Source: an uncultured Gammaproteobacteria bacterium
GTDB lineage: Bacteria; Patescibacteriota; Patescibacteriia; SG8-24; DYFX01
Direction of reading: 5' to 3'
NCBI GenBank assembly: GCA_964404275.1
Contig: CAYOJH010000003.1
Location: 16,879-72,510 of the forward strand
DNA: 55,632 nucleotides
Under the pieces are notes generated by a model. That model was not told the origin of the DNA, did no database searches, and saw only the letters and a list, made by a program, of their open reading frames with translations. The position numbers and the translations under genes are program-made. Positions within the stretch are counted from its first letter, which is position 1; every line of letters starts with the position of its first letter. Shown here piece after piece: positions 6,577-55,596 of this stretch.

Positions 6577-7074
6577 TCAGCGGTTCCAGTCTTCGTAGGC
6601 ATAGCGGCCGTCGGCGGATTGGCGCGTGAGGAATCGCTCGACGGGTGCGCAGGGCACGACCGTTTCCCCGCGTTCGTGGCGCGTGGTCAAGACCGCGTAG
6701 CACACGCCGGAAACGCCCGGTTGGATGTCATGGAAGTACCAGATGTGCTCGGTCATCCAGTCGAGCTTGCGATCCAGGTCGGCCGCGACGCTTTCGCACG
6801 GAGCGAGCGCAGCGTGCAGGCCATCGCGGCTGAACGCGACTTCATAGCAGAAGCCGGTGCGCGGTTCCCGGATGAAGTACGTGTCGTCCGTCACGTCATC
6901 CATGAAGTCCTGTTGGGTTGCGGTGAGCGATCTGTACAACATGTGGGCGACGCCGAACCCGCAAAGCGCGCAGGTCGCGATGATCAGGCCGGTGACGATC
7001 GTGCGGAGGCGCGGGCGGGCGGGCGTGACGGCCAGGGCGGGATCGAGAGCGAGACGGGAATCGGTGGGCAGCAC
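6577..7074 (-). CDS. Orphan single-TM protein with two tandem Cys-pair domains
   Basis: GTG start 6 nt after AAAGGA. TM IVTGLIIATCALCGFGVAHML. Repeats YFIREPRTGFCYEV...APCESV and YFHDIQPGVSGVCYAV...VPCAPV. Confidence 0.6.
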   Translation of the reverse strand: MLPTDSRLALDPALAVTPARPRLRTIVTGLIIATCALCGFGVAHMLYRSLTATQQDFMDDVTDDTYFIREPRTGFCYEVAFSRDGLHAALAPCESVAADLDRKLDWMTEHIWYFHDIQPGVSGVCYAVLTTRHERGETVVPCAPVERFLTRQSADGRYAYEDWNR

Positions 7075-7136
7075 GGCGGGTCCTTTCTGTGAGGGAACTT
7101 GGCCAAGTGAAGCATGCCGCGCCCGCTTCGTCAAGG

Positions 7137-7145
7137 TGGTATACT
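7137..7145 (+). promoter_or_regulatory. Extended -10 promoter (TGG-TATACT) 6 nt before GTG 7152; leaderless-type
   Basis: Read directly from the sequence. Confidence 0.6.
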
Positions 7146-7151
7146 GGCCTC

Positions 7152-9143
7152 GTGGAACCGCACGCGCATAATCTTTTAGGGGAGCATACGCCTCCGCGCA
7201 AAAAGAACGGGAAGCATGTCCTCTACGGCCTGCTCGGATTTTTGGGCGTCGTGATCATGATCGCCGCGGCGATCGCCGTGCCGGCCTTGGCGGCGGCGCG
7301 CGAAGTCTACGCGCAGGCGCTGGCCGGGCGCGACGCGATGTTCAGCGCCAAGACGGCGGCCGAACAGCTCGACTTCGCGACCGCCTCTGCGCGCCTCGAC
7401 GAAGCCGCGCAGCGTTTTCAGGCCGCCGAGAACGCAGATGCGAAACTGAAGACCGTCGAAGCACTGCCGTTTTTCCGGAAAGATCTCCAAGGCGTCTCGG
7501 ATCTTCTTGAAGGCGGACGCGAAGCCTCGCTGGCGCTCAAGCAGGCGATCGACGTCGGCGCCGATCTGGTCGGCGTCTTGAAGAGCGGAAACGCCGCGGT
7601 CGGAAGCGTGCCGGATCTTTCGACCGACGCGCGATCGGTCTCGTCGCTTTCGCGCGAAGAGAAGCGCGTGCTCCTCCAGAATCTTTCGGAAGCGCCGGAT
7701 CGGCTGGCCATCGCGCGCACCTCGCTTGAAAAAGCGATCGCGGCTTGGGATCGCGTGCCGAAAACGCCGCTGACCGAAGGCGTGCTGGCCTCGATCGCGC
7801 CGTACAAGGCGCAGCTCCAAACGCTGCACGATCTGATGAACAAGGATCTGTCGCCGCTCGCGATGCTGCCGTCGATCCTCGGCTACCCGGCGCCGAAGAC
7901 GTATCTCTTTTTGATGCTCAACAACACGGAGCTCAGGCCCGGCGGCGGCTTCATCGGCACCTACGGCATTTTGAAAATCCAGGACGGCGAGATCGCCTCG
8001 TTCTTCACGGATGATATTTACGCGATCGACGGCCCGTCCGAGTCGTACATGCACGAAACGCCGCCCGCGCCGCTCGCGAAATATCTGCGCGTGCCGAGTT
8101 GGTACATGCGCGACGCGAACTGGTCGCCGGATTTCGCCGTCTCCGCGCTGAACGTCGAGAAGTTCTATCACCTTGAAGGCGGCAAGGAGCAGATCGACGG
8201 CGTGATCGGCATGACGCCGACCGTCATCTCGAAGCTCTTGGCCATGACGGGACCGATCACGATCGACGGCTCGACCTTCACGGCGGACAATGTGGTCGAC
8301 GAGCTTGAGTATCGCGTTGAAGTCGCGTTCTGGAACAACGGCACGCCGGAAGCGCAGCGCAAGGACGTGGTCGGCAAGCTTGGACAGGAGCTGATCGGGC
8401 GGATGTTCAGCACGAAGCTCTCGAATCTTTCGCAGCTGGCCGACATCGCGCAGCAGTCGCTCGCCGAGAAGCAACTCATGGCCTCCTTTCATGACTCTTC
8501 GCTGGAAGCCTTCGCCGACGGCAGCGGCTGGTCCGGACGTTTCCGCACCGGGCCGGACGATCAGCTGGCCGTCATCGACGCGAACCTGGCCTCGCTCAAG
8601 ACCGACGCGGTCATGGACAAGAAAATTTCCTATACGCTGAAACCGGATGGCGATTCTTGGATCGCGCACGCCGCGATCACCTACAAGAACAACGGCCACT
8701 TCAATTGGAAGACGACGCGCTATCGCACCTACACGCGTTTTTACGTGCCGCTCGGCTCGACCTTCATCAAGGGCGACGGGATGATGGTCGATGATAAGCT
8801 CAACGATCCGAAGCGGCGGCCGGGCACGATCGACGTGGATACGGATCTCGGACACGCCGTTTTCGGCGGCTTCATTTCCGTCGAACCGGGGGAGACGCGC
8901 ACGCTTTCGGTCGAGTATCGCGTCTCGGACGCGGTCGCGCGGCTCATCCGAAGCAACGCCTACCAGCTTGACGTCCAGAAGCAGCTCGGCACCCTTGCCA
9001 ACGGTTTGACGCTCGATCTCGATTTTGGTAAGAACGTAGCGCGCGCGACGCCCTCGGAACCGCAAAGCCAATGGGGCGATTCGCACTACCGCTTGTCCAC
9101 GGATCTCCGCACCGATCGCCAGTTCTCGGTCGGCCTCCAGTAA
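7152..9143 (+). CDS. DUF4012-domain membrane-anchored protein
   Basis: N-terminal TM, helical region, then YLFLMLNNTELRPGGGFIGTYG, RDANWSPDF and IDGVIGMTP. GTG start inferred from the promoter position. Confidence 0.85.
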   Translation: MEPHAHNLLGEHTPPRKKNGKHVLYGLLGFLGVVIMIAAAIAVPALAAAREVYAQALAGRDAMFSAKTAAEQLDFATASARLDEAAQRFQAAENADAKLKTVEALPFFRKDLQGVSDLLEGGREASLALKQAIDVGADLVGVLKSGNAAVGSVPDLSTDARSVSSLSREEKRVLLQNLSEAPDRLAIARTSLEKAIAAWDRVPKTPLTEGVLASIAPYKAQLQTLHDLMNKDLSPLAMLPSILGYPAPKTYLFLMLNNTELRPGGGFIGTYGILKIQDGEIASFFTDDIYAIDGPSESYMHETPPAPLAKYLRVPSWYMRDANWSPDFAVSALNVEKFYHLEGGKEQIDGVIGMTPTVISKLLAMTGPITIDGSTFTADNVVDELEYRVEVAFWNNGTPEAQRKDVVGKLGQELIGRMFSTKLSNLSQLADIAQQSLAEKQLMASFHDSSLEAFADGSGWSGRFRTGPDDQLAVIDANLASLKTDAVMDKKISYTLKPDGDSWIAHAAITYKNNGHFNWKTTRYRTYTRFYVPLGSTFIKGDGMMVDDKLNDPKRRPGTIDVDTDLGHAVFGGFISVEPGETRTLSVEYRVSDAVARLIRSNAYQLDVQKQLGTLANGLTLDLDFGKNVARATPSEPQSQWGDSHYRLSTDLRTDRQFSVGLQ

Positions 9144-9153
9144 TTTCCCGCGA

Positions 9154-10161
9154 ATGTTCATCAAGAAGATCGGCATCGACCTCGGCACCACGACGGTCCT
9201 GGTCTACGCACCCAAGCGCGGCATCATCATGAACGAGCCGTCGGTCGTGGCCATCTCCACGATCGACAGGAAAATTTTGGCCGTCGGCAAAGAAGCGAAG
9301 GAAATGCTTGGCCGCACGCCCGACACGATCGTGGCCGTGCGCCCGCTCAAGGAAGGCGTGATCGCCGACTACAAGACGACCGAAGCCATGCTTCGGTATT
9401 TCATCAACAAAGCCGTCGGCGGCGTGCGTGTTTTCCGTCCCGAAGTCATGGTCGCCGTCCCGGGCGGCATCACCTCCGTCGAGCGCCGCGCCGTCATCGA
9501 CGCGACCATCGCCGCCGGCGCCCGCGCGGCCTACATCATCAAGGAACCCGTGGTGGCCGCGATCGGCGCGGACATCCCGATCGGCTCGCCTTCGGGCCAC
9601 ATGATCATCGACATCGGCGGCGGCACCGCCGAGATGGCCGTCATTTCTTTGGGCGGCATCGTCGCGTCGGATTCGGTGCGCATCGGCGGCAATAAATTGG
9701 ACGGCGCCATTACCGAGCACGTCCGCCGCAAGTACGGCATGACGATCGGCGAGCGCACGGCCGAAGACATCAAGATCCAGATCGGCTCCGCGCTCTATTT
9801 GGACGAAAAACTTTCGATGGAAGTCAAGGGCCGCGACATGATCACCGGCCTGCCGCGCACGATCACCGTCACTTCCGACGACGTGACCGACGCGATCCAG
9901 AACGAACTCGAAGAACTGATCGCCGCCACCAAAGAAGTCCTGCGCCGCACGCCGCCGGAACTCTCCGCCGACGTCATGGAAAAGGGGATGATCCTCTCGG
10001 GCGGCTCCTCGCAGCTCCGCAACTTGGATCGCCTCTTGGCAAAAGCCACGGGCGTTCCGGCCTACGTCGCCGACGAACCGCAGCTCTGCGTCGTCAAAGG
10101 CACCGGCATCGCGCTCGAAAACTTGGAAAGCTACAAGCGCTCGATCCTGGCGATGCGCTAA
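9154..10161 (+). CDS. mreB: Rod shape-determining actin MreB/Mbl
   Basis: IGIDLGTT, NEPSVVA, DIGGGTAE and LSGGSSQL motifs. Confidence 0.97.
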   Translation: MFIKKIGIDLGTTTVLVYAPKRGIIMNEPSVVAISTIDRKILAVGKEAKEMLGRTPDTIVAVRPLKEGVIADYKTTEAMLRYFINKAVGGVRVFRPEVMVAVPGGITSVERRAVIDATIAAGARAAYIIKEPVVAAIGADIPIGSPSGHMIIDIGGGTAEMAVISLGGIVASDSVRIGGNKLDGAITEHVRRKYGMTIGERTAEDIKIQIGSALYLDEKLSMEVKGRDMITGLPRTITVTSDDVTDAIQNELEELIAATKEVLRRTPPELSADVMEKGMILSGGSSQLRNLDRLLAKATGVPAYVADEPQLCVVKGTGIALENLESYKRSILAMR

Positions 10162-10168
10162 GTGGCGT

Positions 10169-10209
10169 GCCACGTCGTTCGCGAACGACGTGGCGGGTTC
10201 TTGTTTTTT
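10169..10209 (+). terminator. mreB terminator built on a perfect 26-bp palindrome
   Basis: GCCACGTCGTTCGCGAACGACGTGGC (10169-10194) is self-complementary and is followed by GGGTTCTTGTTTTTT. Confidence 0.7.
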
Positions 10210-10255
10210 CATACCGCCAGGTTTAAGGTGCGCCCAACGTTCTTTGGAGGTTCCC

Positions 10256-10654
10256 ATGTCGGAAAAAGCGCGCGCGGTGGCGATGATTGTCACGAATGGA
10301 GACGGTCGGTACTTGCTGCAGATGCGCGACAGCCAGGGAACCAGTCCGCTGCTCTGGTGCCTGTTCGCCGGCTCCATGGAAGCGGGAGAGTCGTATTTCG
10401 ACGCGGCCGTGCGCGAGTTCCATGAAGAGACGGGACTGCGCTTCGGTCCGGTGCGATTCGCGCTGGTCGGGACGATCGAAAACGCGACGCACGTGATTCA
10501 CGTGCTGCGCCTCGACGCCGCGGTCGGCTGGCCATTCGCTCTTTATGAAGGCGCCGGCTGCGGCTTCTTCACGCGCGACGAGGTCGAGGGCTTGCGACTG
10601 CGCGGCTGCCTCACCCGATGGATGTGGACGGTTCTGGAACGCGGTTGGATCTGA
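10256..10654 (+). CDS. NUDIX hydrolase
   Basis: Nudix box GSMEAGESYFDAAVREFHEETG. GGAGG SD 5 nt upstream. Putative promoter TTGTTT-17-TAAGGT (10201-10229). Confidence 0.85.
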   Translation: MSEKARAVAMIVTNGDGRYLLQMRDSQGTSPLLWCLFAGSMEAGESYFDAAVREFHEETGLRFGPVRFALVGTIENATHVIHVLRLDAAVGWPFALYEGAGCGFFTRDEVEGLRLRGCLTRWMWTVLERGWI

Positions 10655-10658
10655 CGCG

Positions 10659-10686
10659 GCCGAGCCTTGGCTCGGCTTTTCTTTTT
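10659..10686 (+). terminator. Intrinsic terminator
   Basis: GCCGAGCC-TT-GGCTCGGC-TTTTCTTTTT. Confidence 0.8.
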
Positions 10687-10715
10687 GTCGCCCCGGTCGT
10701 GTTACACTTGGACAT

Positions 10716-11690
10716 ATGCAATTCCGCTGGAGCTGGAACCGCTGGCCGCTCGCGCTGATCGTCTTTTTCCTGGCCGCGCCGGCCGCGCTGGCGCACGAAA
10801 AATGGTACGTCGATGAACACGCCATCCCGCCCGGACCGCCGATCTTCTTGCGCGTCTCTCTCGAGTTCGCGCTGATCGCCGTGGTCGTCGCCTTCGCGCT
10901 GTTCGTCGGCGCGGTCTGGCTCGACCGCCGCCTGGACAAGGGCAAGCTCATGCGCTGGTTCGACGAGCGCATGGCGCGCTCGCGCATCAATCCGCACGCG
11001 GTCCTGGGCGCGCTGCTCGGCGCCTCGCTGATGGGCGCGGGGCTCCAGCACACGCTGTTCGCTCCGAACCTCGAGCTGCCGGCGACCTTCGTGGGCGCGG
11101 CGGTCGCCGTCTGCGAGATCGGCCTCGGCACGCTGTTCCTGTTCATGGAGCCGTTCTATCCCGAGCTCGGCATCGCGCTGCTCGCGCTGTTCATGGTCGG
11201 CTTCCGGTTTTTCGAGGCGCATGATCTGCTCGAGGAACTGATGCTTCCCGGCATCGCGCTGTTCTTCATCGCCAATGAAACGGTCCGCGCGCCGTGGCGG
11301 AAATGGAACACGCCGGAGCGCCGCCGCCAAGGCTATCACGCCTTCCGCATCCTGACGGGCCTGAACTTCCTGATCCTGTCGACGGTCAAATGGCTGCGGC
11401 CCGAGCTCGCCCTGACGATCGTGCAGCAGTATCACATCAACTTCCTATGGTGGCTGCACGTCAGCGACCTGCAATTCATCTTCTTCGCCGCGATCGTCGA
11501 GACGGCCGTCGCGTTCTGCTTGCTGCTGCGCGTGGCCTTCCGTCCGGCGATTTTCGTCTCGTTCGTCTTCTTCACGCTTTCAATCTATTTCCTCGGTTTC
11601 CGGGAATTGCTCGGCCACCTGCCGATCAAAGCGACGCTGTTCTTGTTCTTCGTCTACGGCCACTGGCACAAAGGCGAGACGAAGCCGTAA
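10716..11690 (+). CDS. Polytopic membrane protein, DoxX-like
   Basis: Signal/TM then AHEKWYVD, about 9 hydrophobic helices, LFAPNL. TGT-TACACT lies 7 nt before the ATG. Confidence 0.6.
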   Translation: MQFRWSWNRWPLALIVFFLAAPAALAHEKWYVDEHAIPPGPPIFLRVSLEFALIAVVVAFALFVGAVWLDRRLDKGKLMRWFDERMARSRINPHAVLGALLGASLMGAGLQHTLFAPNLELPATFVGAAVAVCEIGLGTLFLFMEPFYPELGIALLALFMVGFRFFEAHDLLEELMLPGIALFFIANETVRAPWRKWNTPERRRQGYHAFRILTGLNFLILSTVKWLRPELALTIVQQYHINFLWWLHVSDLQFIFFAAIVETAVAFCLLLRVAFRPAIFVSFVFFTLSIYFLGFRELLGHLPIKATLFLFFVYGHWHKGETKP

Positions 11691-15467: not shown

Positions 15468-18400
15468 ATGTCAAAGCATCCACAGCTCAGCCGGCGCCAG
15501 CTGGCGCGGTTGTATTGGAAAGCGCGGTGGGAAGAAATCTTGCGCGAGCACGTGATTGCTCCCGTCGCGCTGGTTTTGGTGCTCGCCATCGTCTTTCAAG
15601 GCTTTTTCCACCATGTTTCGACCGGCATGGCGGCGACGCAGAACGCCTACCGCTGGCGGAATGATAATGGAACGGAAGCCTCCGCGACCTACGCGGCGGC
15701 GGAAAATGCCTCGCTGAGCGTGGCGACGGATACGCTCAAGCGCCTGCGCTTCGGGCTGGCCGGACCGGTCGGAGCCAGCGTGATCGCCAGCACCGCCAGC
15801 GTCGGCGTCGGCAGCGGTCCCGAACAGGTCGCCATCGCCCCGGGCGGCGCGCGCGCCTACGTCACCAACGATGATGGCACCGTCTCCGTCATCCAGACCT
15901 CGAACAACACCGTGGTCGATACGGTCACCGTCGGCAGCTATCCGGTCGGCGTGGACGTCACCCCGAACGGCGCCGACGTCTACGTCGCCAACTCCAGCGA
16001 CAACACCGTCTCCGTCATCCGGACGTCGGACGATTCCGTCATTGGCACGGTCAGCGTCGGCAGCTATCCCCTGGGCGTGGCCGTCGCTCCGGATGGCGCG
16101 CACGTGTACGTCACGAACGACGGCGGCACGACCGTCTCCGTCATTCAGACGTCGGACAACACCGTCAGCGGCGCGATCACCGTCGGCAGCGGACCCGAAC
16201 GCGTCGCCTTCGCCCCCGATGGCGCGCACGCCTACGTCACCAACGACGACAACACGGTCTCCGTCATCCGCACGTCGGACAATCATGTCGACACGGTCAA
16301 CGTCGGAAGCGCTCCGCTCGGCGTGGCCGTCACGCCCGACGGCACGCACGTCTACGTGACGAACTCCGGCGGCAATACCGTTTCCGTCATCCAAACGTCG
16401 AACAACACGGTCAGCGCGACGATCAACGTCGGCAGGTATCCCGATGCCGTAGCCGTGAGCCCCGACGGTTCTTTGGCCTACGTCACCAGCGGAAACTCGA
16501 ACAACGTCACCGAGATTCGAACGTCGGATAACGCCGTCGTCTATACGGCCACCCTCGGGTCTTACCTGACAGGCATCGCCGTCACCCCCGATGGGGCGCA
16601 CCCCTACGTCGTCAGCGACGGCGACAGTACCGTCCACGTCCTGTCGTTCACGGACGGGACCGACGACACGCCGACGTACGCCATCCATGCCACGATCCAT
16701 GACGCGGGCTTCAGCGGCACCGAAGGCATGGCCATCAGCCCCGACGGCACGCGCGCCTACGTCACCAACTATTACGACGACACCGTCTCCGTCATCCGGA
16801 CATCGGACGACGCCGTCATCGCGACGGTCACCGTCGGCTTCAGTCCGATCGGCATCGCCGTCACCCCCGATGGCGCCCATGTCTACGTTTCCAACCTGGG
16901 CAGCAACACCGTCTCCGTCATCCGGACATCGGATAATTTCGTCACCGCCACGATCGGCGTCGGACATGACCCTGAAGGCTTGGCCATCGCCCCCAACGGC
17001 GCCCGCGCCTACGTCGTCAACGAGAATGATGCCACCGTCTCCGTGATCACGATCCCGGGCAACAGCGTCATCGACACGGTCAGCGTCGGGGACGCCTGGT
17101 TCGACGACACCCAGACCCTCGCCGTCACGCCCGACAGCTCGGAAGTCTACGTCGCCAACGGCTCCGACAACACCGTCTCCGTCATCCGGACGTCGGACGA
17201 TTCCGTCACGCACACGATCAGCGTGAGCGACAGGCCTTTCAGCGTCGCCATCTCGCCAGATGGCGCCCGCGCGTACGTCACCAGCCACTTCTCGAATTAC
17301 GTCTCCGTCATCAGCACGTCGGGGCACAACGTCATCGACACGATCACCGTCGGCACGGGCTCCAATCCCTTCCCCACGGGCCTGGCCGTCACCCCTGACA
17401 GCGGCCACGTCTACGTCAACAACGAGAGCAACAATACCGTTTCCGTCATTCGCACGTCGGATGACACGATGACGGACACGATCGGCGTCGGCCAGAATCC
17501 TGAGGGGATCGCCATCAACGCCGACGGCACCCACGCGTACGTCGCCAATCGCGCCGGCACCTATACCGTCTCCGACATCTCGGTCACCGGCACCACGCAG
17601 CATGCGCGTCTCGAATACGGCGTGAAGACCACGACGTGCGACGTCATCGCCAGCTGGACGCAAGTCGGCGCTCCGGCCGGCGGCGAGGACTGGATTATGG
17701 CGGATTCGACGAACCTGACCGACGGCGCGGCCACGACCGACAGCGCGGGTTTGAGCAACGGCGCGGCGACTTTCAAGGCCGGCGTCGTGAAGGATACGTC
17801 TTCGGAAACGGTCGGCCTCGCGTTCGATTCCACGCACTTCACCGAGCTCGAATACAGCGTCAAAGCCAATACGTCCGATGTCGACGGCACGGCCTATTGT
17901 TTCCGCCTGACCGACGCGGGCGTTCCCACCAGCTATACCTACACCAACTACGCGGAGGCGACGATCGCCGCCGGCGGTGGCGGAGGAGGCGGCGGTGGCG
18001 GAGGCGGGGGCAATCCCACCCCGGCCATCACGCTCGCGACGCCGAACGGCGGCGAGCAGCTTGCGGCGAATGCGACGACGAATATTTTCTGGACGTCGCA
18101 AGGCACGCAAGTCCAGGCGATCCGTTTGTCGTATTCCATTGATGGCGGTTCGACTTGGAACGTCATCACTTCGTCCGGCAACCCTTCGACCGGCGTCTAC
18201 GCCTGGCAGGTTCCCGATCTTTCGGCGCCGTCCGTGCTGATGAAAGCTGAAGCCATGAACGGCGAGACCGTGCTGGCGTCCGACGTCAGCGATCAGGCCT
18301 TCGCGATCACCGGAGGCTCGAACGGCACGAATGGACAGCCTGTCTTGTCGACCGGGACTCCCTCGGGAGAGACGAGCAGCTCCGCGACGTCCACGGCGTC

Positions 18401-42113: not shown

Positions 42114-42134
42114 CGCGTCACCCCGTTCCGGGCC

Positions 42135-42172: not shown

Positions 42173-42178
42173 GGAAGC

Positions 42179-43516
42179 ATGTCTGAACAACATCGCAAAG
42201 CTTGGGTCGTGACCGTCGACATGGGCTACGGCCATGAACGCGCCTCGCACGCGATCAAGGATTTGGCGTACGGCGACGTGATCGTCGCCAACAACTACCA
42301 CGGCATTCCGGAGCGCGATAAAAAGCTATGGCTCGGCACCCGCACGATCTACGAAGCCTTCTCGCGTTTCAAGCGCGTGCCGTTCATCGGCGAATTGGCC
42401 TGGCACGCCTTCGACACGCTCCAGGAAATCAAGCCGTTCTATCCGCGCCGCGACTTGTCGGCGCCGAGCCTGCAGATCCTCGAGATTTATCATTTGATCG
42501 AAAAGAAGGGCCTGGGCCGCCACCTGATCGAGCTCATGCGGAACAAGCGGCGCATTCCGCTGATCTGCACCTTTCCGTTGCCGGCCTTCGCCGCCGACGT
42601 CTTCGAATATCCGGAAGACATTTATCTCGTCACGACCGACTCGGACGTCAGCCGCGCCTGGGTCGCCAAGGATCCGAAGCGCAGCCGCATCAAGTACTTC
42701 GCCTCGAACGGCCGCGTCGTCGAGCGTCTCAAGCTCTACGGCGTGCCGCCGGAAAATATTTTCCTGACCGGCTTTCCGCTCTCGAAGGAACTGGTCGGCG
42801 GCCCGCATGTCGACACGATCCGCAAGGACCTGGGAGAACGCATCTGCCATCTCGATCCGCAGGGCATTTTCTATTCGCGGTACGAGGAAATCCTGAAGTC
42901 GGCGCTCGGAGTGGCGAACTGCACCCGGGTCCCGACGCATCCGCTCACGCTGACCTTCAGCGTCGGCGGCGCGGGCGCGCAAGGCGAGCTCGGCATCACG
43001 ATCGCCAAGAGCCTGCGCGAGAAAATCCGCAGCGGCAAGATCTTGCTCAACCTGGTGGCCGGCACCAAGAAAGACGTCGCGCATTCTTTCAAGAAAGAAC
43101 TGCTGGCGCTCGGCATGGGTAGCGATCTCGGTCACGGCGTGCGCGTCCTCTGGTACCACGACCGCCCCACCTATTTCAGCCGCTTCGATCAAGTCCTTCG
43201 CCACACCGACGTCCTCTGGACCAAGCCGAGCGAGCTCTCCTTCTATACCGGCGTGGGAATGCCGATCATCATCTCGCCGCCGATCGGCTCCCAGGAAATC
43301 TTCAACGAACTCTGGCTGCGCACCGTCGGCGGCGGCACCCCGCAGGCGGACCCGCGCTACGTGAACGAATGGCTGTTCGACTGGGTCGAATCCGGCGGTC
43401 TGGCCCGCATGGCCTGGAACGGTTTCATCGAAGCGCCCACGCACGGTACCTATCGCATCGAGGAGATTCTGACCGGCGCCCAAGTCGAGCTCGCCAAATT
43501 GCCGCTCATCGTCTGA
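42179..43516 (+). CDS. GT-B fold glycosyltransferase-like protein (UgtP/MGDG-synthase-like motifs)
   Basis: VDMGYGHERA (compare GxGH), YLVTTDSD, IFLTGFP, SVGGAG and LWTKPSE (compare TKPGG) motifs. Confidence 0.65.
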   Translation: MSEQHRKAWVVTVDMGYGHERASHAIKDLAYGDVIVANNYHGIPERDKKLWLGTRTIYEAFSRFKRVPFIGELAWHAFDTLQEIKPFYPRRDLSAPSLQILEIYHLIEKKGLGRHLIELMRNKRRIPLICTFPLPAFAADVFEYPEDIYLVTTDSDVSRAWVAKDPKRSRIKYFASNGRVVERLKLYGVPPENIFLTGFPLSKELVGGPHVDTIRKDLGERICHLDPQGIFYSRYEEILKSALGVANCTRVPTHPLTLTFSVGGAGAQGELGITIAKSLREKIRSGKILLNLVAGTKKDVAHSFKKELLALGMGSDLGHGVRVLWYHDRPTYFSRFDQVLRHTDVLWTKPSELSFYTGVGMPIIISPPIGSQEIFNELWLRTVGGGTPQADPRYVNEWLFDWVESGGLARMAWNGFIEAPTHGTYRIEEILTGAQVELAKLPLIV

Positions 43517-46048: not shown

Positions 46049-46438
46049 ATGCCCGCGCCGCGCGCCAGAATTTTGGTGGTGGAGGACGAGACCTTTCTCG
46101 TCAAGATTTACGACGTCAAACTGAAAAAAGAAGGTTTCGACGTCGGCATAGCGACCGATGGCGAAGCGGCGCTCGCGATGGCCGTGTCGTTCCGTCCGGA
46201 TCTGATCCTGCTGGACCTGCTCTTGCCGAAGCTCGACGGATTCGAGGTGCTGAGGCGCCTGCGCGCCGAGCCGAAAACCAAACACATCCAAGTCATCGTG
46301 CTTTCCAATCTCGGACAAGAAGAAGACATGAAGCGCGCCCGGGCGCTCGGCGCCGAGGACTATCTCATCAAGGCGGATCACACGCTGCAGGAGATCATCG
46401 CGAAAATCCGCCAGCAGCTTGAACGGCGTTCCGCCTGA
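46049..46438 (+). CDS. Single-domain response regulator (CheY-like)
   Basis: LVVEDE, LLDLLLPKLDG, VLSN and YLIKA motifs. Confidence 0.92.
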   Translation: MPAPRARILVVEDETFLVKIYDVKLKKEGFDVGIATDGEAALAMAVSFRPDLILLDLLLPKLDGFEVLRRLRAEPKTKHIQVIVLSNLGQEEDMKRARALGAEDYLIKADHTLQEIIAKIRQQLERRSA

Positions 46439-46439
46439 T

Positions 46440-47564
46440 GTGACCATTCCACGCCACATTTTACGGGAATCTTCGGCGGAGCGCGCCGTCGATTTGCTGT
46501 TGTCCGAAGCCGTTCGCGCTTCGGCCACCGACCTGGTTCTCGAGCCTCAGGCAGGATTCGCGACCGTGCGGATGCGGATCGGAGGTCTCGCGCACGAGAT
46601 GTTCCGGCAGCCGAAGGACACGCACGCGAAATTCGTCGCGCGCCTCAAAGCGCTGGCGCGCCTTCGGGACGTCGCGCCGCTTGCCGCGCAGGAGGGCGAG
46701 GTGCGCCGCATCGTCGGCGGCCGATCTGTCGAAGCGCGGGCCAGGATCGTGCCGGTCATGGAGGGGGAAAAAGCCGTCGTGCATTTTCGCGCGCCGAGGC
46801 CCGCCCTCGACGCGCTCGGCTTGTCCGAAACGCAAATGGAGCGGCTGCGCGCGGCTTTGAAGAAAAAATCCGGCTTGATCGCGGTCGTCGGTCCGCGCGC
46901 GTCCGGCCTCACGACCACGCTTTTGGCTTGCGTGAAAGAGGCGCGTGCCGCCGGCCAGGCCGCCGTCACGATCGAAGATCCGATCGAAGAAGATCTTCCG
47001 GGCGTCGCGCAGGCGGAAGTCGACGCCGCTTCCGGCCGTACCTTTGCCGCACTTGCGCGCGCCGCGGCGGTCGAAGGCTCCGGCTTGCTTATGATCGGCG
47101 ACCTGCGCGATGAAGCGACGGCCGCGATCGCCGTCGCCGCCGCCAAGCGCCGGCCGGTGCTGATCGGTCTCCGCGGCTCCGGCGCGTTGGATGCGATCCC
47201 GCGGCTTTCCGAACTCGGCATCGACCCCACCATCGCGCGCGCCACCCTCGCGCTTTCCGTCGGCCAGCGTCTCGCGCGGATCATCTGCCCGCGCTGCCGC
47301 CGCGCCGAAAAAACCACGAAAGCGCAGGCGCTTTCTTCCGGCTGGCCGCGCCCGCTCGTCGCGCGCCTCTTCGCCGCCAAGGAGGCGATCGCGCTCGCTC
47401 GCGGCGCCAAATGCGAAGCTTGCCGATACACCGGCTTCCGGGGCGCGATCGGGATCTTCGAGCTGTTCGATCCGAAAGATCCCGGCAGCCTGACCCCGTT
47501 CTTCGAAGACGGCCTTCGCAAAGCCTTGACGGGCCTCACGACGATCGAAGAGCTGCTCCGCTGA
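46440..47564 (+). CDS. PilB/GspE-family ATPase homolog with degenerate Walker A/B and His boxes
   Basis: ATDLVLEP, GPRASGLTTT, TIEDPIE, IGDLRD, QRLARIICPRC...CEAC and GLTTIEE motifs. In-frame GTG start 1 nt after the upstream stop. Confidence 0.8.
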   Translation: MTIPRHILRESSAERAVDLLLSEAVRASATDLVLEPQAGFATVRMRIGGLAHEMFRQPKDTHAKFVARLKALARLRDVAPLAAQEGEVRRIVGGRSVEARARIVPVMEGEKAVVHFRAPRPALDALGLSETQMERLRAALKKKSGLIAVVGPRASGLTTTLLACVKEARAAGQAAVTIEDPIEEDLPGVAQAEVDAASGRTFAALARAAAVEGSGLLMIGDLRDEATAAIAVAAAKRRPVLIGLRGSGALDAIPRLSELGIDPTIARATLALSVGQRLARIICPRCRRAEKTTKAQALSSGWPRPLVARLFAAKEAIALARGAKCEACRYTGFRGAIGIFELFDPKDPGSLTPFFEDGLRKALTGLTTIEELLR

Positions 47565-47567: not shown

Positions 47568-47601
47568 TGCTATACTGTCGGCACCTTTCGATTTATCCAC
47601 A
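47568..47601 (+). promoter_or_regulatory. Extended -10 (TGC-TATACT) followed by a consensus DnaA box TTATCCACA (47593-47601)
   Basis: Read directly from the sequence. Confidence 0.55.
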
Positions 47602-47618: not shown

Positions 47619-48185
47619 ATGTCCAAGGAAGTCGTGCTCGACATCGAGACGGATGGCTTGATCGGCCCCAACAATGCCATGCCGAAGATCACGCTCGTCG
47701 GCGTCTACTATTACGAGACGGACGAGTACGTCAGCTACCTTGAACACGAGTTGCCGAACCTCTGGCCGCGCTTGGAGCGCGCCGACCGCATCATCGGCTA
47801 CAACACCAAGGGCTTCGATCTTCCGGTCATGAACAGCTATTACGCAGGCGACTTGCTGACGTTCCAGAATCTTGACCTGCTGGAAGTCATTGCCGCCAGC
47901 CTCGGCTTCCGCCTGAAACTCGACTCGGTCGCGCAGGCCACGCTCGGGATCGGCAAGACGGGGCACGGCCTCCAGGCCCTCGAGTATTTCAAGAAAGGGG
48001 AGCTCGACAAGCTTCGCGATTACTGCCTGATGGACGTGAAGATCACCAAAGAAGTCTACGAATACGGGCGCGAGCGCGGCGAGGTCCTCTTTGAGGATCG
48101 GACCGGCGCGAAGAAGGCCGTCAAAGTCAACTTCAAGATGCCGAACGCCAAAGCGAATCCGATCAACCTGACGATGCCGTTTTAG
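47619..48185 (+). CDS. DEDD 3-prime-5-prime exonuclease / RNase H-like (YprB/RNase_H_2-like)
   Basis: VVLDIET (ExoI), IGYNTKGFD (ExoII), LKLDSVA and YCLMDV (ExoIII) motifs. Confidence 0.85.
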   Translation: MSKEVVLDIETDGLIGPNNAMPKITLVGVYYYETDEYVSYLEHELPNLWPRLERADRIIGYNTKGFDLPVMNSYYAGDLLTFQNLDLLEVIAASLGFRLKLDSVAQATLGIGKTGHGLQALEYFKKGELDKLRDYCLMDVKITKEVYEYGRERGEVLFEDRTGAKKAVKVNFKMPNAKANPINLTMPF

Positions 48186-48213
48186 AAAAAAGCCCTCCGT
48201 TGGAGGGTCTTTG
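48186..48213. terminator. Terminator between convergent genes
   Basis: AAAAAAG-CCCTCC-GTT-GGAGGG-TCTTTG. Confidence 0.7.
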
Positions 48214-48600
48214 TTATCCGAGATATCCGAGGCCGTAGGCGACGCCGAGGGCGCCAAGGGCCATGAGCAGCAGGCCGAGCTTGCGGCGTTCGGGCGAGCG
48301 CCGGACGATCTGGAAGCCGACGACGAGCAGCGCGGCGCCCGCATAGAGCGCGATCTGCCGCGTGGTCATCGCCATGGCGGAACGCGCCAGGAAGCCGAGC
48401 ACGAGCAGCAGGATGTATCCGCCGATCAGCACGTTGGCCGCGCCGGCCAGCCGATTGCGATTGGGCGGCTTGGCCAAGAGCATGATCAGGCCGTTCAGGA
48501 CGCCGATCGCGCCGGCCAGCAGGTACCAGCCCGAGCGCATCGCGAAGAACATGAACAGGGACAGGGCGATCGTGACGACTCGTAGGTTGACTCGCGGCAA
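48214..48600 (-). CDS. Orphan small 4-5 TM membrane protein
   Basis: TTG start after GGAGGTG. Promoter TTGACG-17-TAGAGT (48648-48620). Hydrophobic throughout. Confidence 0.6.
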   Translation of the reverse strand: MPRVNLRVVTIALSLFMFFAMRSGWYLLAGAIGVLNGLIMLLAKPPNRNRLAGAANVLIGGYILLLVLGFLARSAMAMTTRQIALYAGAALLVVGFQIVRRSPERRKLGLLLMALGALGVAYGLGYLG

Positions 48601-48691
48601 AGGGCACCTCCGTGGCCGCACTCTACGGCTTCGCGTCCAAGCCGTCAAAATCCGGCAAAGAAAAAACCCCGCGATGAACGGAGCTTTTCCA

Positions 48692-48766
48692 TGGTCGGAA
48701 TGACAGGGATTGAACCTGCGGCCTCTCGCACCCGAAGCGAGCGCTCTACCGCTGAGCTACATTCCG
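48692..48766 (-). tRNA. tRNA-Pro(CGG)
   Basis: Minus strand CGGAATG acceptor stem, CTCGC-TTCGGGT-GCGAG anticodon arm, GGTTCAATCC T-arm, CCA. Promoter TTGCCA-17-TAGGAT (48815-48787). Confidence 0.97.
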
Positions 48767-48863
48767 ACGGTCCGATGAACGTGGGTATCCTACCTGATCC
48801 GCCGCGCCTTGGCAAGACTCGACGGGTCGCGGATGTGCTAAAATGCCGCCGAGGAGGTTCCCG

Positions 48864-49178
48864 ATGCGCCTGCTGCTCTCCACGCTCATTCTGTCCGCGC
48901 TGGTTTCCTGCGCGACGTCCGCGTACGTCGAGCCGGCCTATCCCGTCACGCCGGTCTACGTCTACGCCTACGAAGGCGGCGCCTGCTGGGCCGATGACGT
49001 CTGGTACGGCGCCTGTCCCTGGGCCATGCCCGGCTACGGCTACTACGCCTGGTACGGCGGACGCTGGACGCCGCGCCCGCACTACGTCTGGCGGGATCAT
49101 CGCTCTCCGCCGCCCATGCATTGGCATGGCCCGATCGCGCACCCCGTCTATCCTGGCGGCCGCGGCTGGCATCGCTAA
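48864..49178 (+). CDS. Small Trp/Tyr/Pro/Gly-rich lipoprotein
   Basis: GAGGAGG SD. TGC-TAAAAT -10 at 48836-48844. Lipobox ALVSC. WYGGRWTPRPHYVW segment. Confidence 0.7.
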   Translation: MRLLLSTLILSALVSCATSAYVEPAYPVTPVYVYAYEGGACWADDVWYGACPWAMPGYGYYAWYGGRWTPRPHYVWRDHRSPPPMHWHGPIAHPVYPGGRGWHR

Positions 49179-49239
49179 CCCCGCTCCTCGCAGCGGGTTT
49201 TTCTTTGCTTGACCCGTTCGCCTTTCGTTCGTGTAGAAT
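49177..49239 (+). promoter_or_regulatory. Terminator fused to the rarA promoter (TTGACC...TAGAAT, 6 nt before ATG)
   Basis: CCCGCT-CCTCGC-AGCGGG-TTTTTCTTTGC-TTGACC(49209). TAGAAT at 49234; the spacer is a long 19 nt. Confidence 0.6.
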
Positions 49240-49245
49240 GCGATC

Positions 49246-50511
49246 ATGAACCTCTTTGACCTCAAAGATCAAAAAGAAAAGGAGAAGCAAGCGCCGCTGG
49301 CGGAACTGATGCGTCCGCGCGCGCTCGAGGATTTCGTGGGCCAGGATGAGCTGGTCGGCGAAGGTTCGGCGCTCAGGACACTTTTGGAATTGGACGCGAT
49401 CCCGTCCATGATTTTCTGGGGACCGCCCGGCGTCGGCAAAACGACGCTCGCGCGCATCATCGCGGGCCGCACCAAATCGCGCTTCGTCGCGCTGTCGGCC
49501 ACGACCTCCGGCATCGCCGATCTCAAGCGCGCGGTTGAGGAAGCGCGCGAGCGGCGCGCCTTGCACGGCGAGCGCACGATCGTCTTCATCGACGAAATCC
49601 ACCGTTGGAACAAAGCGCAGCAGGACGCGTTTTTGCCGCACGTCGAGGACGGCACGGTCACGCTGATCGGCGCGACCACGGAAAACCCTTCCTTCGAAGT
49701 GAACAGCGCGCTCTTGTCGCGTTCGCGCGTCTTCGTGCTCAAGGCGCTGTCCGTCGAGGCGATTGAAGCGATGCTGAAGCGCGCGCTCGCGCTGGTCAAA
49801 GAACGCGGCGTGTATCCGCACAAGATCAAGGTCGACAAGGAAGCGCTGAAATACCTGGCGACGATCGCGAACGGCGACGGACGCTCGGCCTTGAACGGCC
49901 TGGAACTCGGGCTGCGCAGCGTCCGGCCGGACGCGAAAGGCGTGGTATACTTGAAGAAGGAAGCGCTGGCCAAAACGCTTCAAAAAAACCATCTTTTGTA
50001 CGACCGGCAGGGCGAGGAGCACTACAACATCATCTCCGCCTTGCACAAGTCGATGCGCGGTTCGGACACCGACGCGGCGCTCTACTGGCTCGGGCGCATG
50101 CTTGAGGCGGGGGAGGATCCGCTCTACGTCGCGCGGCGCATCGTGCGCTTCGCTTCGGAAGATGTCGGCTTGGCGGATCCGAACGCGCTCGTCCAAGCAG
50201 TCGCCGCCTATCAAGCCTGTCATCAGATCGGCATGCCGGAATGCAACGTCATCCTGGCGCAAGCCGTGGCGTATCTCGCCCGCGCGCCGAAATCGAACGC
50301 GCTCTACGTCGCCTACGGCCGCGTCCAGCGCGACATCGCGGAGCATCCGAACGAAGGCGTTCCGCTGCATCTTCGCAACGCGCCGACCAAGCTCATGAAG
50401 AACCTCGGCTACGGCCAGGATTACAAGTACAACCCCGTCTTCAAGGAACCGGTCGATCAGGACTATCTCCCCGAATCCCTCAAGGGACGCCATTACCTCG
50501 ATGATGTCTAA
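49246..50511 (+). CDS. rarA: Replication-associated recombination protein A (MgsA/RarA AAA+ ATPase)
   Basis: PLAELMRP, WGPPGVGKTT, FIDEIHRWNKAQQD, GATTENPSF, SALHKSMRGSD and FASEDVG motifs. Confidence 0.97.
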   Translation: MNLFDLKDQKEKEKQAPLAELMRPRALEDFVGQDELVGEGSALRTLLELDAIPSMIFWGPPGVGKTTLARIIAGRTKSRFVALSATTSGIADLKRAVEEARERRALHGERTIVFIDEIHRWNKAQQDAFLPHVEDGTVTLIGATTENPSFEVNSALLSRSRVFVLKALSVEAIEAMLKRALALVKERGVYPHKIKVDKEALKYLATIANGDGRSALNGLELGLRSVRPDAKGVVYLKKEALAKTLQKNHLLYDRQGEEHYNIISALHKSMRGSDTDAALYWLGRMLEAGEDPLYVARRIVRFASEDVGLADPNALVQAVAAYQACHQIGMPECNVILAQAVAYLARAPKSNALYVAYGRVQRDIAEHPNEGVPLHLRNAPTKLMKNLGYGQDYKYNPVFKEPVDQDYLPESLKGRHYLDDV

Positions 50512-53385: not shown

Positions 53386-53386
53386 T

Positions 53387-54649
53387 ATGCTGCGCCATCT
53401 CCAATCCCTCCTGGCCTTCCTCGCCCGCGCGACGCTCGCGCGTTATACGCCGAAAATCGTGGCGGTCGCCGGCTCCGTCGGCAAGACCTCGACGACCCGT
53501 GCGATCGCGGCGGTCTTGGCGCGCTCATTCCCGACGCGAGGCAGCGCCAAGAATCACAACAATGAAATCGGCGTGCCGCTTACGATTTTGGGCGAAGCGA
53601 AATCCGGCGGACGTTCGCCCTTCGCCTGGCTCGCCATTCTCTGGCGCGGCTTCCGTTTGGCCTTCGGTCCCGCGCGGAACTATCCCAAAGTGCTCGTGCT
53701 CGAGATGGCGACCGACCATCCCGGCGATTTGACGCACCTCGTTTCGATCGCGCCGCCGGACGTCGCCGTGCTGACGGCCGTTTCGGAAGAGCATACCGAA
53801 TATCTCGGCGATCTCGATGGCGTGGCCAAAGAAGAGGGGACGATCGTACGCGCGCTCCCGCCGCATGGAACCGCAGTCTTGAACGCGGATGACGCGCGCG
53901 TGGCCGCGATGAAAGCGGATGCGCTGCATGCGATGTCGTTCGGGTTTTCCGCATCCGCCGATGTCCGCGCCGAACGCGTCCAGCCAGAGCTCGCGCTCGG
54001 CACGGTTTTCACCCGCTTCGATTTGCAAATCGGCGGAAAAAGCTACCCGGTCAACCTCCCGAACGCGCTCGGCGACGGCAACGTCTACGCCGCGCTCGCG
54101 GCCGCATCGGTCGCGTTGGCGTTCGGCATCGATCCCGCGCTGATCCCGTACGGTTTGGCGGAATACGAACCGCCGCCGGGACGCCTGCGCGTTTTGCCCG
54201 GCATCAAGAACGTCACGATCGTCGACGACACCTACAACGCCTCGCCCCGCGCTTCGGAATTGGCGCTCGCGACGCTCCAGCATCTGCCGATCGCCTCGGG
54301 TGGACGCCGCATCGCCGCGCTCGGCGACATGCTCGAGCTCGGCGCGCTGACGGAAGAAACGCATCGGCGCATCGGCGAGATCGCCGCGCGTTCGGGCCTC
54401 GAGCTTTTGATCGGCGTCGGTCAGGCTTCCTTCCAACTTTGTGACGCGGCCAAGGCCGCCGGGATGCCCGAAGAGCGCGTCTTCCATTTTTCCGAGGCGG
54501 TTTCGGCCGGAAAATTCCTTCAAGAGCGCTTGCATTCCGGCGATCTTTTGCTGGTCAAAGGCTCCCGCGGCATGCGCATGGAACGCATCGTCAAAGAACT
54601 GATGTCTGAGCCCGAACGGGCCTCGGAATTGCTGGTCGGTCAGGATTGA
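53387..54649 (+). CDS. murF: UDP-MurNAc-tripeptide:D-Ala-D-Ala ligase
   Basis: AGSVGKTST, NHNNEIGVP, VLEMA, DDTYNASP, LGDMLELG and LVKGSRG motifs. Confidence 0.95.
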   Translation: MLRHLQSLLAFLARATLARYTPKIVAVAGSVGKTSTTRAIAAVLARSFPTRGSAKNHNNEIGVPLTILGEAKSGGRSPFAWLAILWRGFRLAFGPARNYPKVLVLEMATDHPGDLTHLVSIAPPDVAVLTAVSEEHTEYLGDLDGVAKEEGTIVRALPPHGTAVLNADDARVAAMKADALHAMSFGFSASADVRAERVQPELALGTVFTRFDLQIGGKSYPVNLPNALGDGNVYAALAAASVALAFGIDPALIPYGLAEYEPPPGRLRVLPGIKNVTIVDDTYNASPRASELALATLQHLPIASGGRRIAALGDMLELGALTEETHRRIGEIAARSGLELLIGVGQASFQLCDAAKAAGMPEERVFHFSEAVSAGKFLQERLHSGDLLLVKGSRGMRMERIVKELMSEPERASELLVGQD

Positions 54650-54708
54650 CAAAAGCCGGCGAAGCGCTATCGTATCGAAGGATTGGATGCCAATCCGAGG
54701 AGGCCGAC

Positions 54709-55596
54709 ATGTGCGAGGAACGAGACGCATGGCTTGGCCGGACGTTGTCCGGACGTTATCTCCTGAGGAGGAAATTCGAGAGCGGCGGCATGAGCCGCGC
54801 GTATGAAGGCTGGGACCAAAAAGCGCGCCGCCGCGTGGCCGTCAAGCTCATCGAACATGAGCGCGACGGCGACGAAACCGTCAAACGGCTGCAGATCGAA
54901 GCTTTGGCGCTTCGGTGCGTGCGGCATCGCAACGTGGTTGGATTGCTTGATTGGCAGGTCGCGGACGGGCACGAGTTCTTCGTCATGGAATACGCCGAAG
55001 GCTTCAGCCTCGAAGACCTGCTCATCCGCCAGACGCGCTTTCGGACGGAAGAGTCCGTGATGATCGTCGCGCGGCTGCTCGAGGCGCTCGAGGCGGTTCA
55101 CGCCGCCGGGCTCCTGCATCGCGACGTGAAGCCCGGACACATGATCCTGATGCCCGGCGATCTCAAGCTGATCGACTTCGGCTTGGTCATCCCGCTTTCC
55201 GCCGGCTGGCCGAACGCGCGCTGGCAGCGGCTGACGCGCTCGGAACATTGCATGGGCACGCCCGCCTACATGTCGCCCGAGCGCATCCATCGTCGCGATG
55301 ACGTCGACGTGCGCGCGGATCTCTACTCCGCCGGGCTGATCCTTTACGAGATGCTGTCCGCCCGACTTCCGTTCGCGGAACGCGGGACCCCGACGCGGCC
55401 GGTCGAACGCCGGACCGGCTCGCTGGGCCGGATGGTTCGGCGGCTGGCTATCCCTCCCAGCCCGATCGGACGCTGGCGGCCTGACCTGCCGATCCTGCTT
55501 CAGCTCCAGATCATGCGGGCCTTGGAGCCGAAGGCCGCGAATCGGTTCCAATCCGCCGCGGAGATGCGTACCGCCCTTTTGGCCGTTTTGCCCTGA
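54709..55596 (+). CDS. Hanks-type Ser/Thr protein kinase, kinase domain only
   Basis: SGGMS loop, VAVK, VMEY, HRDVKPGH, DFG, GTPAYMSPE and DLYSAG motifs. GAGGAGG SD. TTGACA overlapping the murF stop (54646). Confidence 0.92.
   Translation: MCEERDAWLGRTLSGRYLLRRKFESGGMSRAYEGWDQKARRRVAVKLIEHERDGDETVKRLQIEALALRCVRHRNVVGLLDWQVADGHEFFVMEYAEGFSLEDLLIRQTRFRTEESVMIVARLLEALEAVHAAGLLHRDVKPGHMILMPGDLKLIDFGLVIPLSAGWPNARWQRLTRSEHCMGTPAYMSPERIHRRDDVDVRADLYSAGLILYEMLSARLPFAERGTPTRPVERRTGSLGRMVRRLAIPPSPIGRWRPDLPILLQLQIMRALEPKAANRFQSAAEMRTALLAVLP

Follow-up and report, generated by a model that had tools for sequence, protein, structure and literature searches.

Why would a minority of genes in a bacterial genome carry strong Shine–Dalgarno (SD) sequences while the core genes around them carry none? 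The question is raised by a 55,632-nucleotide (nt) stretch of contig CAYOJH010000003.1 (the window; all positions are counted from its first base), in which a sequence-only reading listed 13 SD-led genes among SD-less core genes, and described them as self-contained cassettes that entered singly at sites between core operons, or else as a separately regulated translational class. In this study the 13 genes were compared with the remaining genes of the window and with related loci. The division between SD-led and SD-less genes is real. It is probably best explained by a leaderless-rich genome, in which the position of a start codon on its mRNA would decide whether SD pairing is used.

The window has a GC content of 63%. 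Approximately 50 genes were called with a codon model trained on its long open reading frames (ORFs) with high GC at third codon positions (GC3) and were named by Pfam, and five tRNA genes are its only Rfam content. Named homologs of its GlyRS and RarA belong to the Patescibacteria group, Candidatus Uhrbacteria and Parcubacteria. Ten related loci (L007, L009–L012, and L015–L019), obtained via homologs of GlyRS, RarA, and the hypothetical protein hyp229 and via contigs encoding these, bring the pooled set to 184 starts; the data comprise one 55-kb window and approximately 170 kb of related loci, and the right edge of the window was extended by 530 bases (L020). A search of genome and metagenome contigs with PBP1A returned distant or fragmentary loci only. 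A 1.7-kb contig labeled "uncultured Gammaproteobacteria" (L001, CAYYII010000183.1) encodes a PBP1A fragment 69% identical to that of the window, and is probably a mis-binned Patescibacteria contig.

For every candidate start, SD strength was scored as the duplex free energy (ΔG, kcal/mol) of positions −22 to −3 (20 nt) against the 16S tail CACCUCCUUU, with 3662 ATG, GTG, and TTG triplets as background. Strong, GGAGG-type SDs with a spacer of 4–6 nt precede 11 of the approximately 50 genes, at exactly the positions first listed, and the two remaining starts have a moderate and a weak site. The SD-led units are as follows (CDS, coding sequence).

6553–7100, minus strand: hyp165 unit, encoding a transmembrane protein; weak SD-like AAAGGA (scored as AAGGA, −5.6), CDS 6577–7074 with a GTG start at 7074, bidirectional terminator hairpin 6553–6576.
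10200–10687, plus strand: NUDIX unit; −10 hexamer TAAGGT 10224–10229, strong SD GGAGGT, CDS 10256–10654, terminator 10658–10677.
26565–27419, minus strand: hyp259 unit; promoter TTGACA-17-TATGTT (27419–27391), strong SD AAGGAG, CDS 26580–27359 (start 27359), terminator 26592–26570.
27612–28540, minus strand: purine-nucleoside-phosphorylase-like unit (PNP_UDP); moderate SD GAGGT (−7.0 kcal/mol), CDS 27641–28495 (start 28495), terminator 27642–27623.
29740–30619, plus strand: hyp266 unit; TTGACC-17-TACCAC, strong SD GGAGGTG, CDS 29787–30587, terminator 30590–30609.
32508–33685, both strands: divergent SD-led pair hyp125/hyp229; common 56-nt promoter region around TAGGCTA (32921–32927), each gene with its own terminator.
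32526–32903, minus strand: hyp125; TTG start at 32903, strong SD GGAGGTG.
32960–33649, plus strand: hyp229; start 32960, strong SD AAGGAGG.
34445–35308, plus strand: hyp247 unit; TTGACC-18-TACAGT (34445–34474), strong SD AAGGAG, CDS 34527–35270, terminator 35276–35298.
35300–37545, plus strand: TPR lipoprotein unit; TAGACC at −24, then 7–8 nt and strong SD GGAGG, CDS 35351–37516, terminator 37515–37535.
40916–42168, plus strand: phosphodiesterase/nucleotide pyrophosphatase unit; TTGACA-17-TATGCT (40916–40944), strong SD GGAGG, CDS 41007–42113, terminator 42134–42158.
48185–48648, minus strand: hyp128 unit; TTGACG-17-TAGAGT (48648–48620), strong SD GGAGGTG, TTG start at 48600, CDS 48214–48600, terminator 48207–48193.
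48810–49207, plus strand: hyp104 unit, lipoprotein-like; −10 hexamer TAAAAT at −25, strong SD AGGAGGT, CDS 48864–49178, terminator 49180–49197.
54646–55616, plus strand: Ser/Thr kinase unit; TTGACA-16-TATCGT (54646–54673), strong SD AGGAGG, CDS 54709–55596, terminator 55590–55606.

All 13 genes are monocistronic, with promoter-like hexamers ahead and a terminator hairpin and T run behind, so the anatomy of promoter, SD, ORF, and terminator proposed for them stands. Ten of the terminators were found by scan, those of hyp165 and hyp229 by eye, and that of PNP_UDP was located separately; a scan for TTGACx-16/18-TAnnnT promoters found those of hyp259, hyp247, the phosphodiesterase, hyp128, and the kinase. 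The −10 hexamer lies at −24 or −25 in several units (hyp125, hyp128, hyp104, and, as a conserved TAGACC, the TPR lipoprotein), so that the transcript would begin at or a few bases from the SD and the leader would consist of the SD and its spacer alone. The SD-led set makes up about a quarter of the window genes. The products that could be named are a NUDIX hydrolase, a purine-nucleoside-phosphorylase-like enzyme, a membrane phosphodiesterase, a TPR lipoprotein, and a Ser/Thr kinase, with no ribosomal protein among the 13.

A ΔG of −9.5 or below is found at 9 of 50 starts, compared with 1.97% of the background triplets (binomial p = 5e-7), and a ΔG of −7.8 or below at 12 of 50, compared with 4.75% (p = 3e-6). 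These 12 include a false match ahead of the DUF4012 gene (start 7152; AGGTGG, ΔG −8.2), which lies 12 nt from the start, where a −10 box stands at −12, and is not a working SD. The genes mreB, frr, glyS, tpiA, rpmG, holB, rarA, ftsI, and murF score between −2.9 and +0.4 and have no SD, in agreement with the sequence-only reading (glyS being the gly gene scored), and the remaining window genes range from −6 to +1.9; the distribution of scores is bimodal. Across the window and related loci, 32 of the 35 SD-led starts have spacers of 4–6 nt. Several sites run on to GGAGGTG or AAGGAGGTGA and are complementary to the canonical 16S tail (..UCACCUCC), and the 16S rRNA of this lineage therefore very probably keeps the anti-SD CACCUCC.

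The SD-less genes fall largely into two groups, and here the proposal of two translation regimes holds only in part: the split is real, but the genes on its SD-less side are not signal-free, being either coupled to an upstream gene or preceded by a −10 box that abuts the start. The coupled group comprises 22 of 50 window genes, which begin within 15 nt of an upstream stop codon on the same strand (ATGA overlaps, TGAnATG). No SD precedes any of these 22 starts, compared with 12 of the 28 others (Fisher p = 4e-4). In the pooled set a correctly spaced SD is present at 1 of 86 coupled starts and 32 of 98 others (Fisher p = 2e-9); two further "SD" matches among coupled genes were discarded, their spacers being 13 nt.

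The second group consists of first-in-operon genes with leaderless geometry. A TANNNT hexamer beginning between −16 and −11 is found in 25 of 64 SD-less first genes of the window and the ten loci, compared with an expectation of 1.9% (p = 1e-26), and its position peaks sharply between −12 and −14; such a box is present in no more than 2 of 34 SD-led genes. The leaderless-type share, as sampled in 55 kb and its orthologous loci, is seven to eight of 26 first genes in the window and 25 of 98 pooled non-coupled starts. The signals that define this group, together with a core operon that combines both groups, are listed below.

49209–50511, plus strand: rarA, a leaderless-type core gene; TTGACC 49209–49214, TAGAAT 49234–49239, then 6 nt and ATG at 49246.
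20205–24455, plus strand: core operon of glyS, an M16 peptidase, tpiA, and a TPR gene; internal genes start 1–5 nt after the preceding stop, no SD.
7140–7154, plus strand: −10 box of DUF4012; TATACT at −12 of the GTG at 7152, the same box in L010.
10703–10718, plus strand: −10 box of hyp324; TACACT at −13 of the ATG at 10716, kept as TGCTACACT in L012 and L010.
37543–37580, plus strand: promoter of PBP1A; TTGACA-17-TAGAGA, its hexamer ending 6 nt before the second ATG (37578), which is for this reason the likely leaderless start.
42167–42181, plus strand: −10 box of the first gene in the six-gene operon from DUF6938 to the PilT-like gene; TATACT at −12 of the ATG at 42179.
UDG gene: −10 box TGTAAT at −14.

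This geometry is conserved. The whole rarA promoter is found at the same distance in four genomes (window, L015, L016, and L017), and the rarA product has 421 residues in five genomes, from a single conserved start without SD. The glyS start (window, TGATAGGCT) has its hexamer at −13 in the window and at −13 or −14 across six genomes, a count that includes L010 after its start was moved three codons upstream to an ATG that restores both the spacing and the 440-residue length; glyS products have 440 residues, again from a single conserved start without SD.

The bases next to the start codon agree with this geometry. RNA polymerase prefers to start at a purine preceded by a pyrimidine. At all 27 starts with a TANNNT box, position −1 is a pyrimidine, the kind of base to be expected were transcription to begin at the A of the ATG. 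Uracil in particular stands at −1 in 60% of SD-less starts, compared with 17% of SD-led starts (p = 4e-6), and is favored in leaderless-type and coupled genes alike. The bias fits the reported pairing of U(−1) with A37 of the initiator tRNA (PMC10018350).

Two genes change their position on the mRNA between relatives, and their signals change too. One is the PilT-like gene, which in the window follows an additional response regulator, RR2.

46049–46442, plus strand: RR2; found only in the window, coupled on both sides with gaps of 4 and 1 nt.

The PilT-like start is the same GTG in all genomes compared (window, 46440). In L015–L017 it lies approximately 30 nt after the gene RR1 and has AAGGAGG ahead; in the window, where RR2 is inserted, it lies 1 nt after a stop codon and the SD is gone. 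The other is the DUF4012 gene. In L012 it overlaps the GT2b gene by 4 nt, with no minus-strand gene upstream and no −10 box, while in the window and L010 minus-strand genes separate it from GT2b and TATACT stands at −12. These natural experiments suggest that the position of the start codon on the mRNA predicts SD use.

From these signals we propose, with a probability of roughly 0.7, that the window derives from a GC-rich, Uhrbacteria-like member of the Patescibacteria with a leaderless-rich genome and three routes of initiation, set by the position of the start codon on the mRNA. On the leaderless route, first genes of core operons would be transcribed from a sigma-70-type promoter with a −10 hexamer TANNNT beginning 12–14 nt before the ATG; transcription would start at the A of the start codon, and so leave no room for an SD. 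On the coupled route, internal operon genes starting approximately 15 nt or less from an upstream stop would need no SD, since terminating ribosomes would re-initiate. On the third route the start codon would lie inside a leader, with a strong SD 4–6 nt ahead, the leader ranging from approximately 12 nt (an mRNA beginning at the SD itself) to approximately 60 nt. SD pairing would be required only for start codons that are set back from the 5′ end of the mRNA and have no stop codon beside them. The minority that needs it would be monocistronic genes, mostly for orphan, envelope, or nucleotide-salvage proteins, which diverge quickly and show more frequent gain and loss than core genes do.

Several points weigh against this proposal. 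Position on the mRNA gives no reason why the fast-evolving genes should be the leadered ones. Approximately 8 of 50 genes stand outside all three classes (hyp693, HTH198, rpmG, FAD-Rieske, hyp370, a methyltransferase, RR1, and an RNase-H-like exonuclease), and some of these have predicted leaders of 13–20 nt without SD. The pooled counts rest on orthologous loci and so are not independent events. Start codons are uncertain at high GC, and some were chosen by the signal ahead of them, which favors the pattern. Finally, the organism is known from groundwater metagenome DNA only, and all transcription starts, like the re-initiation and the canonical 16S tail, are predictions: the window sequence is present in four groundwater metagenome DNA runs, while RNA runs contain 5% of sampled window words, which correspond to conserved fragments from relatives.

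The start regions of some of the unclassified genes are as follows. The divergent promoters of hyp693 and the HTH gene (2118–2166) overlap in a common palindromic TGTATACA/TATACT region, with predicted leaders of 13–16 nt and no SD. The rpmG gene (bL33; 24310–24991) lies 3′ of a three-tRNA cluster, and its own promoter, TTGACG-17-TATCCT, overlaps the end of tRNA-Thr and would give a leader of approximately 19 nt, without SD. A perfect match to the DnaA-box consensus, TTATCCACA, is located at 47593–47601, approximately 20 nt upstream of the RNase-H-like 3′–5′ exonuclease gene (start 47619), and recurs at the equivalent position in L015–L017. No SD precedes this gene, nor does a −10 box at leaderless distance, and the window shows no origin-like switch in GC skew. 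The TTG start called for the FAD/Rieske oxidoreductase directly follows the hyp259 terminator hairpin (26562–26592), with no promoter or SD seen ahead; translation may instead begin at the ATG at 26520.

The SD-led genes form a class of their own, patchy in distribution and faster in divergence, as the claimed link between SD and accessory status implied. In relatives that cover the site, SD-led genes are present in 44% of cases and SD-less genes in 90% (p = 8e-5). Orthologs of SD-led genes are 49% identical, compared with 72% for SD-less genes (p = 4e-4), and the difference is retained among first-in-operon genes only (47% versus 77.5%, p = 4e-4). The association of SD with accessory genes is strong, though not absolute, since variable genes also occur without SD in the window (the giant surface protein, the FAD-Rieske gene, and hyp370) and with leaderless geometry in relatives (YecM, DUF218, a polysaccharide deacetylase, and hyp407). 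The idea that SD-led genes simply encode secreted or membrane proteins was rejected, because signal peptides are also found on the SD-less hyp324, BNR, hyp370, GH-like, and TSP3 proteins. No family match in Pfam, PHROGs, or NCBIfam was obtained for 7 of the 13 SD-led proteins.

Patchy units of this anatomy could have been inserted singly between core operons, drawn from SD-using donors or taken up by an unrecognized site-specific mechanism, as the sequence-only reading supposed. Four of the 13 units (hyp165, NUDIX, hyp259, and hyp104) are indeed without a counterpart at their site in the sampled relatives. The NUDIX unit is the one cleanly resolved insertion: it fits exactly between the mreB terminator (10168–10195) and the leaderless promoter that serves the following gene, no target duplication being visible, and L010 and L012, which lack it, have only approximately 60 nt there. 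The arrival of hyp104, absent from L015–L017, coincides with an inverted tRNA-Pro unit, gene content between rpmG and UDG differs in every relative, and the lowest codon adaptation values of the window belong to hyp229 (0.55) and NUDIX (0.61). At the hyp165 site L010 has four other small SD-led genes on the minus strand, and at the hyp128 site L017 has a shorter SD-led gene, hyp81, with no protein match to hyp128.

The other nine units, however, have a syntenic ortholog with conserved SD in at least one relative. In L018, PNP_UDP (66% identity, AGGAG), hyp266, hyp125, hyp229, hyp247, and the TPR lipoprotein occur in the same order and orientation, each with its SD. Orthologs of hyp266 adjoin UDG in L011, L018, and L019, with an SD in each; hyp125 is found further in L007 and L012, hyp229 in L019, and hyp247, with SD, in L007, while the SD-led hyp295 of L010, at the hyp247 site, is a weak match only (29% identity over 70 residues). 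The geometry of the TPR lipoprotein unit is kept in L007, L012, L018, and L019, hyp128 keeps GGAGGTG and TTG in L015 and L016, and kinase orthologs with an SD and a TTG start occur in L015–L017; the gene that follows the kinase in the window's own genome (L020) is SD-led too. The phosphodiesterase ortholog of L017 has a weaker SD-like AAGGGAG (ΔG −8.1). Since these nine are syntenic and have kept their SDs while their proteins diverged to 30–66% identity, they are old, which runs counter to insertion one by one. Syntenic fixation across relatives, which the sequence-only reading had named as counting against its proposal, is thus largely observed.

Composition does not fit a foreign, SD-using donor pool either. 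GC3 is 0.818 in SD-led and 0.821 in core genes (p = 0.88), codon adaptation is 0.69 and 0.72 (p = 0.23), with hyp229 alone mildly atypical, and overall GC is slightly higher in SD-led genes (0.651 versus 0.629, p = 0.014). As first noted, mobility signatures are missing. Pfam revealed no integrase or transposase domain in the window ORFs, nor did PHROGs and NCBIfam in ten SD-led proteins, and no attC-like site, target duplication, or direct repeat was seen at the unit junctions. A search for repeats of 16 nt or more revealed no shared junction motif, the repeats obtained being internal to the giant surface protein or chance GC-rich matches. PHROGs matches of SD-led proteins are one generic NUDIX and two weak, function-unknown hits for hyp229, with no phage or mobile-element signature. 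Selection alone would leave insertions between a terminator and the next promoter, and variable genes that are SD-less or leaderless-type exist as well. Cassette capture is thus improbable as an explanation, and the best-supported reading is that the SD-led genes are long-standing chromosomal residents and no recent cassette captures.

Gene turnover in the window is not limited to the 13 units. The rpmG–UDG interval (24991–30699) is a turnover hot spot in L007, L010, L011, L012, L018, and L019, with a different set in every relative (including Zincin_1, YecM, DUF218, GIY-YIG, SMR, PDDEXK_5, Bestrophin-like, ASCH, polysaccharide deacetylase, and M23 proteins), in which SD-led and leaderless-type starts are mixed. 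The giant beta-propeller surface protein varies in its place along the conserved backbone. In the window its gene (15468–20204), which is SD-less and preceded only by a TAAACT at −17, stands between frr and glyS; it is found directly upstream of glyS in L009 (1–9987) and L007 and is missing in L010 and L012. A giant ORF of L011 (3446–8239), between holB and the BNR gene, has no detectable similarity to the window protein. Adjoining hyp104, the unit of promoter, tRNA-Pro, and terminator (48692–48815) is on the minus strand in the window and on the plus strand in L015, L016, and L017 (approximately 9790–9960), and the tRNA-Pro and hyp104 promoters overlap in their −35 elements, at the near-palindrome CTTGGCAAG.

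A different explanation, which can coexist with the proposal based on mRNA position, is that cells have two ribosome or initiation states and that the SD-led mRNAs form a translational regulon. This would account for the retention of the SD on the same orthologs while the proteins diverge, for the enrichment of envelope, orphan, and nucleotide-salvage proteins, and for the near absence of SD elsewhere, including internal operon genes, which carry SDs in leaderless-rich Actinobacteria (PMC6028130). A precedent exists in Flavobacterium, where ribosomes are SD-blind and one SD-bearing gene is translated by bS21-lacking ribosomes (PMC7797042, PMC9976891, PMC13000453). The window, however, holds no 16S, rpsU, rpsR, or rpsF gene, and nothing in it bears on ribosome composition; the only leader motif common to the class is the SD itself, and the PilT-like gene gains or loses its SD by position alone, which a regulon would not predict. 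We regard such a regulon as doubtful. A broader form, in which two selected initiation regimes extend through the clade and perhaps much of the phylum, with an SD-free default for core genes and an SD-dependent regime for the fast-evolving set, is to be considered unlikely. Its default may combine leaderless initiation and re-initiation, aided by U(−1), with many mRNAs of the SD set beginning at the SD itself, and the SD regime could be switched as a block via the anti-SD tail or the availability of a ribosomal protein. If true, this would amount to a regulon acting at translation in an organism that has very few transcription factors.

The least probable explanation, and a very remote one, is that the classes were created by the choice of starts, SD-preceded triplets being picked for one class and starts being mis-picked in the other. 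Alternative upstream starts do exist for several SD-led genes (10190/10244, 29760, 34473, 35333, 48648, and 54646), and public calls for relatives are wrong at four starts. Yet the enrichment was measured against all start triplets, the spacer is fixed, orthologous N-termini align at SD-led starts, rarA and glyS have their single conserved SD-less starts, and correction of the four miscalls brings those starts closer to the pattern.

Leaderless-rich genomes have been described before, and the window is a further clear, GC-rich instance. They make up group C of GeneMarkS-2, with Actinobacteria and Deinococcus-Thermus (Lomsadze et al. 2018, PMC6028130), and TA-led genes are the signature of leaderless transcripts (Zheng et al. 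2011, PMC3160421). As in those genomes, a TANNNT Pribnow box stands approximately 12 nt before first-in-operon starts, first genes of both the leaderless and the SD-led kind occur side by side, and the genome is GC-rich, the middle of the −10 hexamer carrying little information. The leaderless-type share sampled here also falls within the approximately 25–50% of transcription units that characterizes such genomes. In contrast to group C, whose internal operon genes are modeled with SDs, the coupled genes here have them in 0 of 22 window cases and in 1 of the 86 pooled; SDs are restricted to the fast-evolving monocistronic units, a minority, and leadered first genes do use them. A full-text literature search found no paper linking leaderless gene organization with Patescibacteria.

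In Bacteroidia, bS21, bS18, and bS6 sequester the anti-SD, and rpsU alone retains a strong SD (PMC7797042, PMC9976891, PMC13000453). There too the genome is almost SD-free, with few genes carrying a strong, extended SD conserved across relatives, and Bacteroidia show that a cell with two regimes is physically possible. Their mRNAs, however, are leadered with upstream adenines, while the SD-less genes here are leaderless-type or coupled, and the SD-led set here, about a quarter of the genes, includes no ribosomal-protein gene. Closer in ancestry, part of the Parcubacteria is without anti-SD (Tsurumaki et al. 2022, PMC9297842). These belong to the same superphylum and share a reduced reliance on SD pairing, but the present lineage has working-looking SD sites up to GGAGGTG and would have kept its anti-SD.

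Among mobile elements, phage morons are likewise a promoter, an ORF, and a terminator wedged between conserved genes; in contrast to morons, the units here have no prophage context and most are syntenic across relatives. Integron cassettes are promoterless and are read from a common Pc promoter, with IntI and attI, and an attC for each cassette. The units described here differ in that no integrase domain or repeated junction element accompanies them, their ends are ordinary terminators, each has its own promoter-like hexamers, and several are opposite in strand to their neighbors. Recent islets, as envisaged in the Lawrence–Ochman amelioration model, would be expected to differ in composition, and neither codon usage nor GC3 of the SD-led units is atypical; by the islet criterion of absence from the site, 4 of 13 are missing from every sampled relative and the other 9 occur, patchily, in one or more; mean presence is 0.44.

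The four misplaced public start calls in relatives illustrate a practical consequence. They are glyS of L010 (10001), three codons short; hyp330 of L010 (5247), six codons long; the PilT-like gene of L015 (3612), approximately 34 codons short; and hyp274 of L011 (18476), nine codons long. Each corrected start restores a −10 box at −13 or a GGAGG-type SD. Gene callers that assume SDs misplace starts here, and a dual model of leaderless and SD-led starts would improve the annotation of Patescibacteria. The scarcity of SDs in coupled genes and the U(−1) bias lead to testable predictions on SD-independent initiation. More broadly, this lineage, with its reduced genome, may be one where SD pairing has become exceptional and marks a gene set that is conserved yet turns over fast; the SD would then offer a way to recognize, from sequence, the accessory or host-interaction genes of uncultured bacteria.

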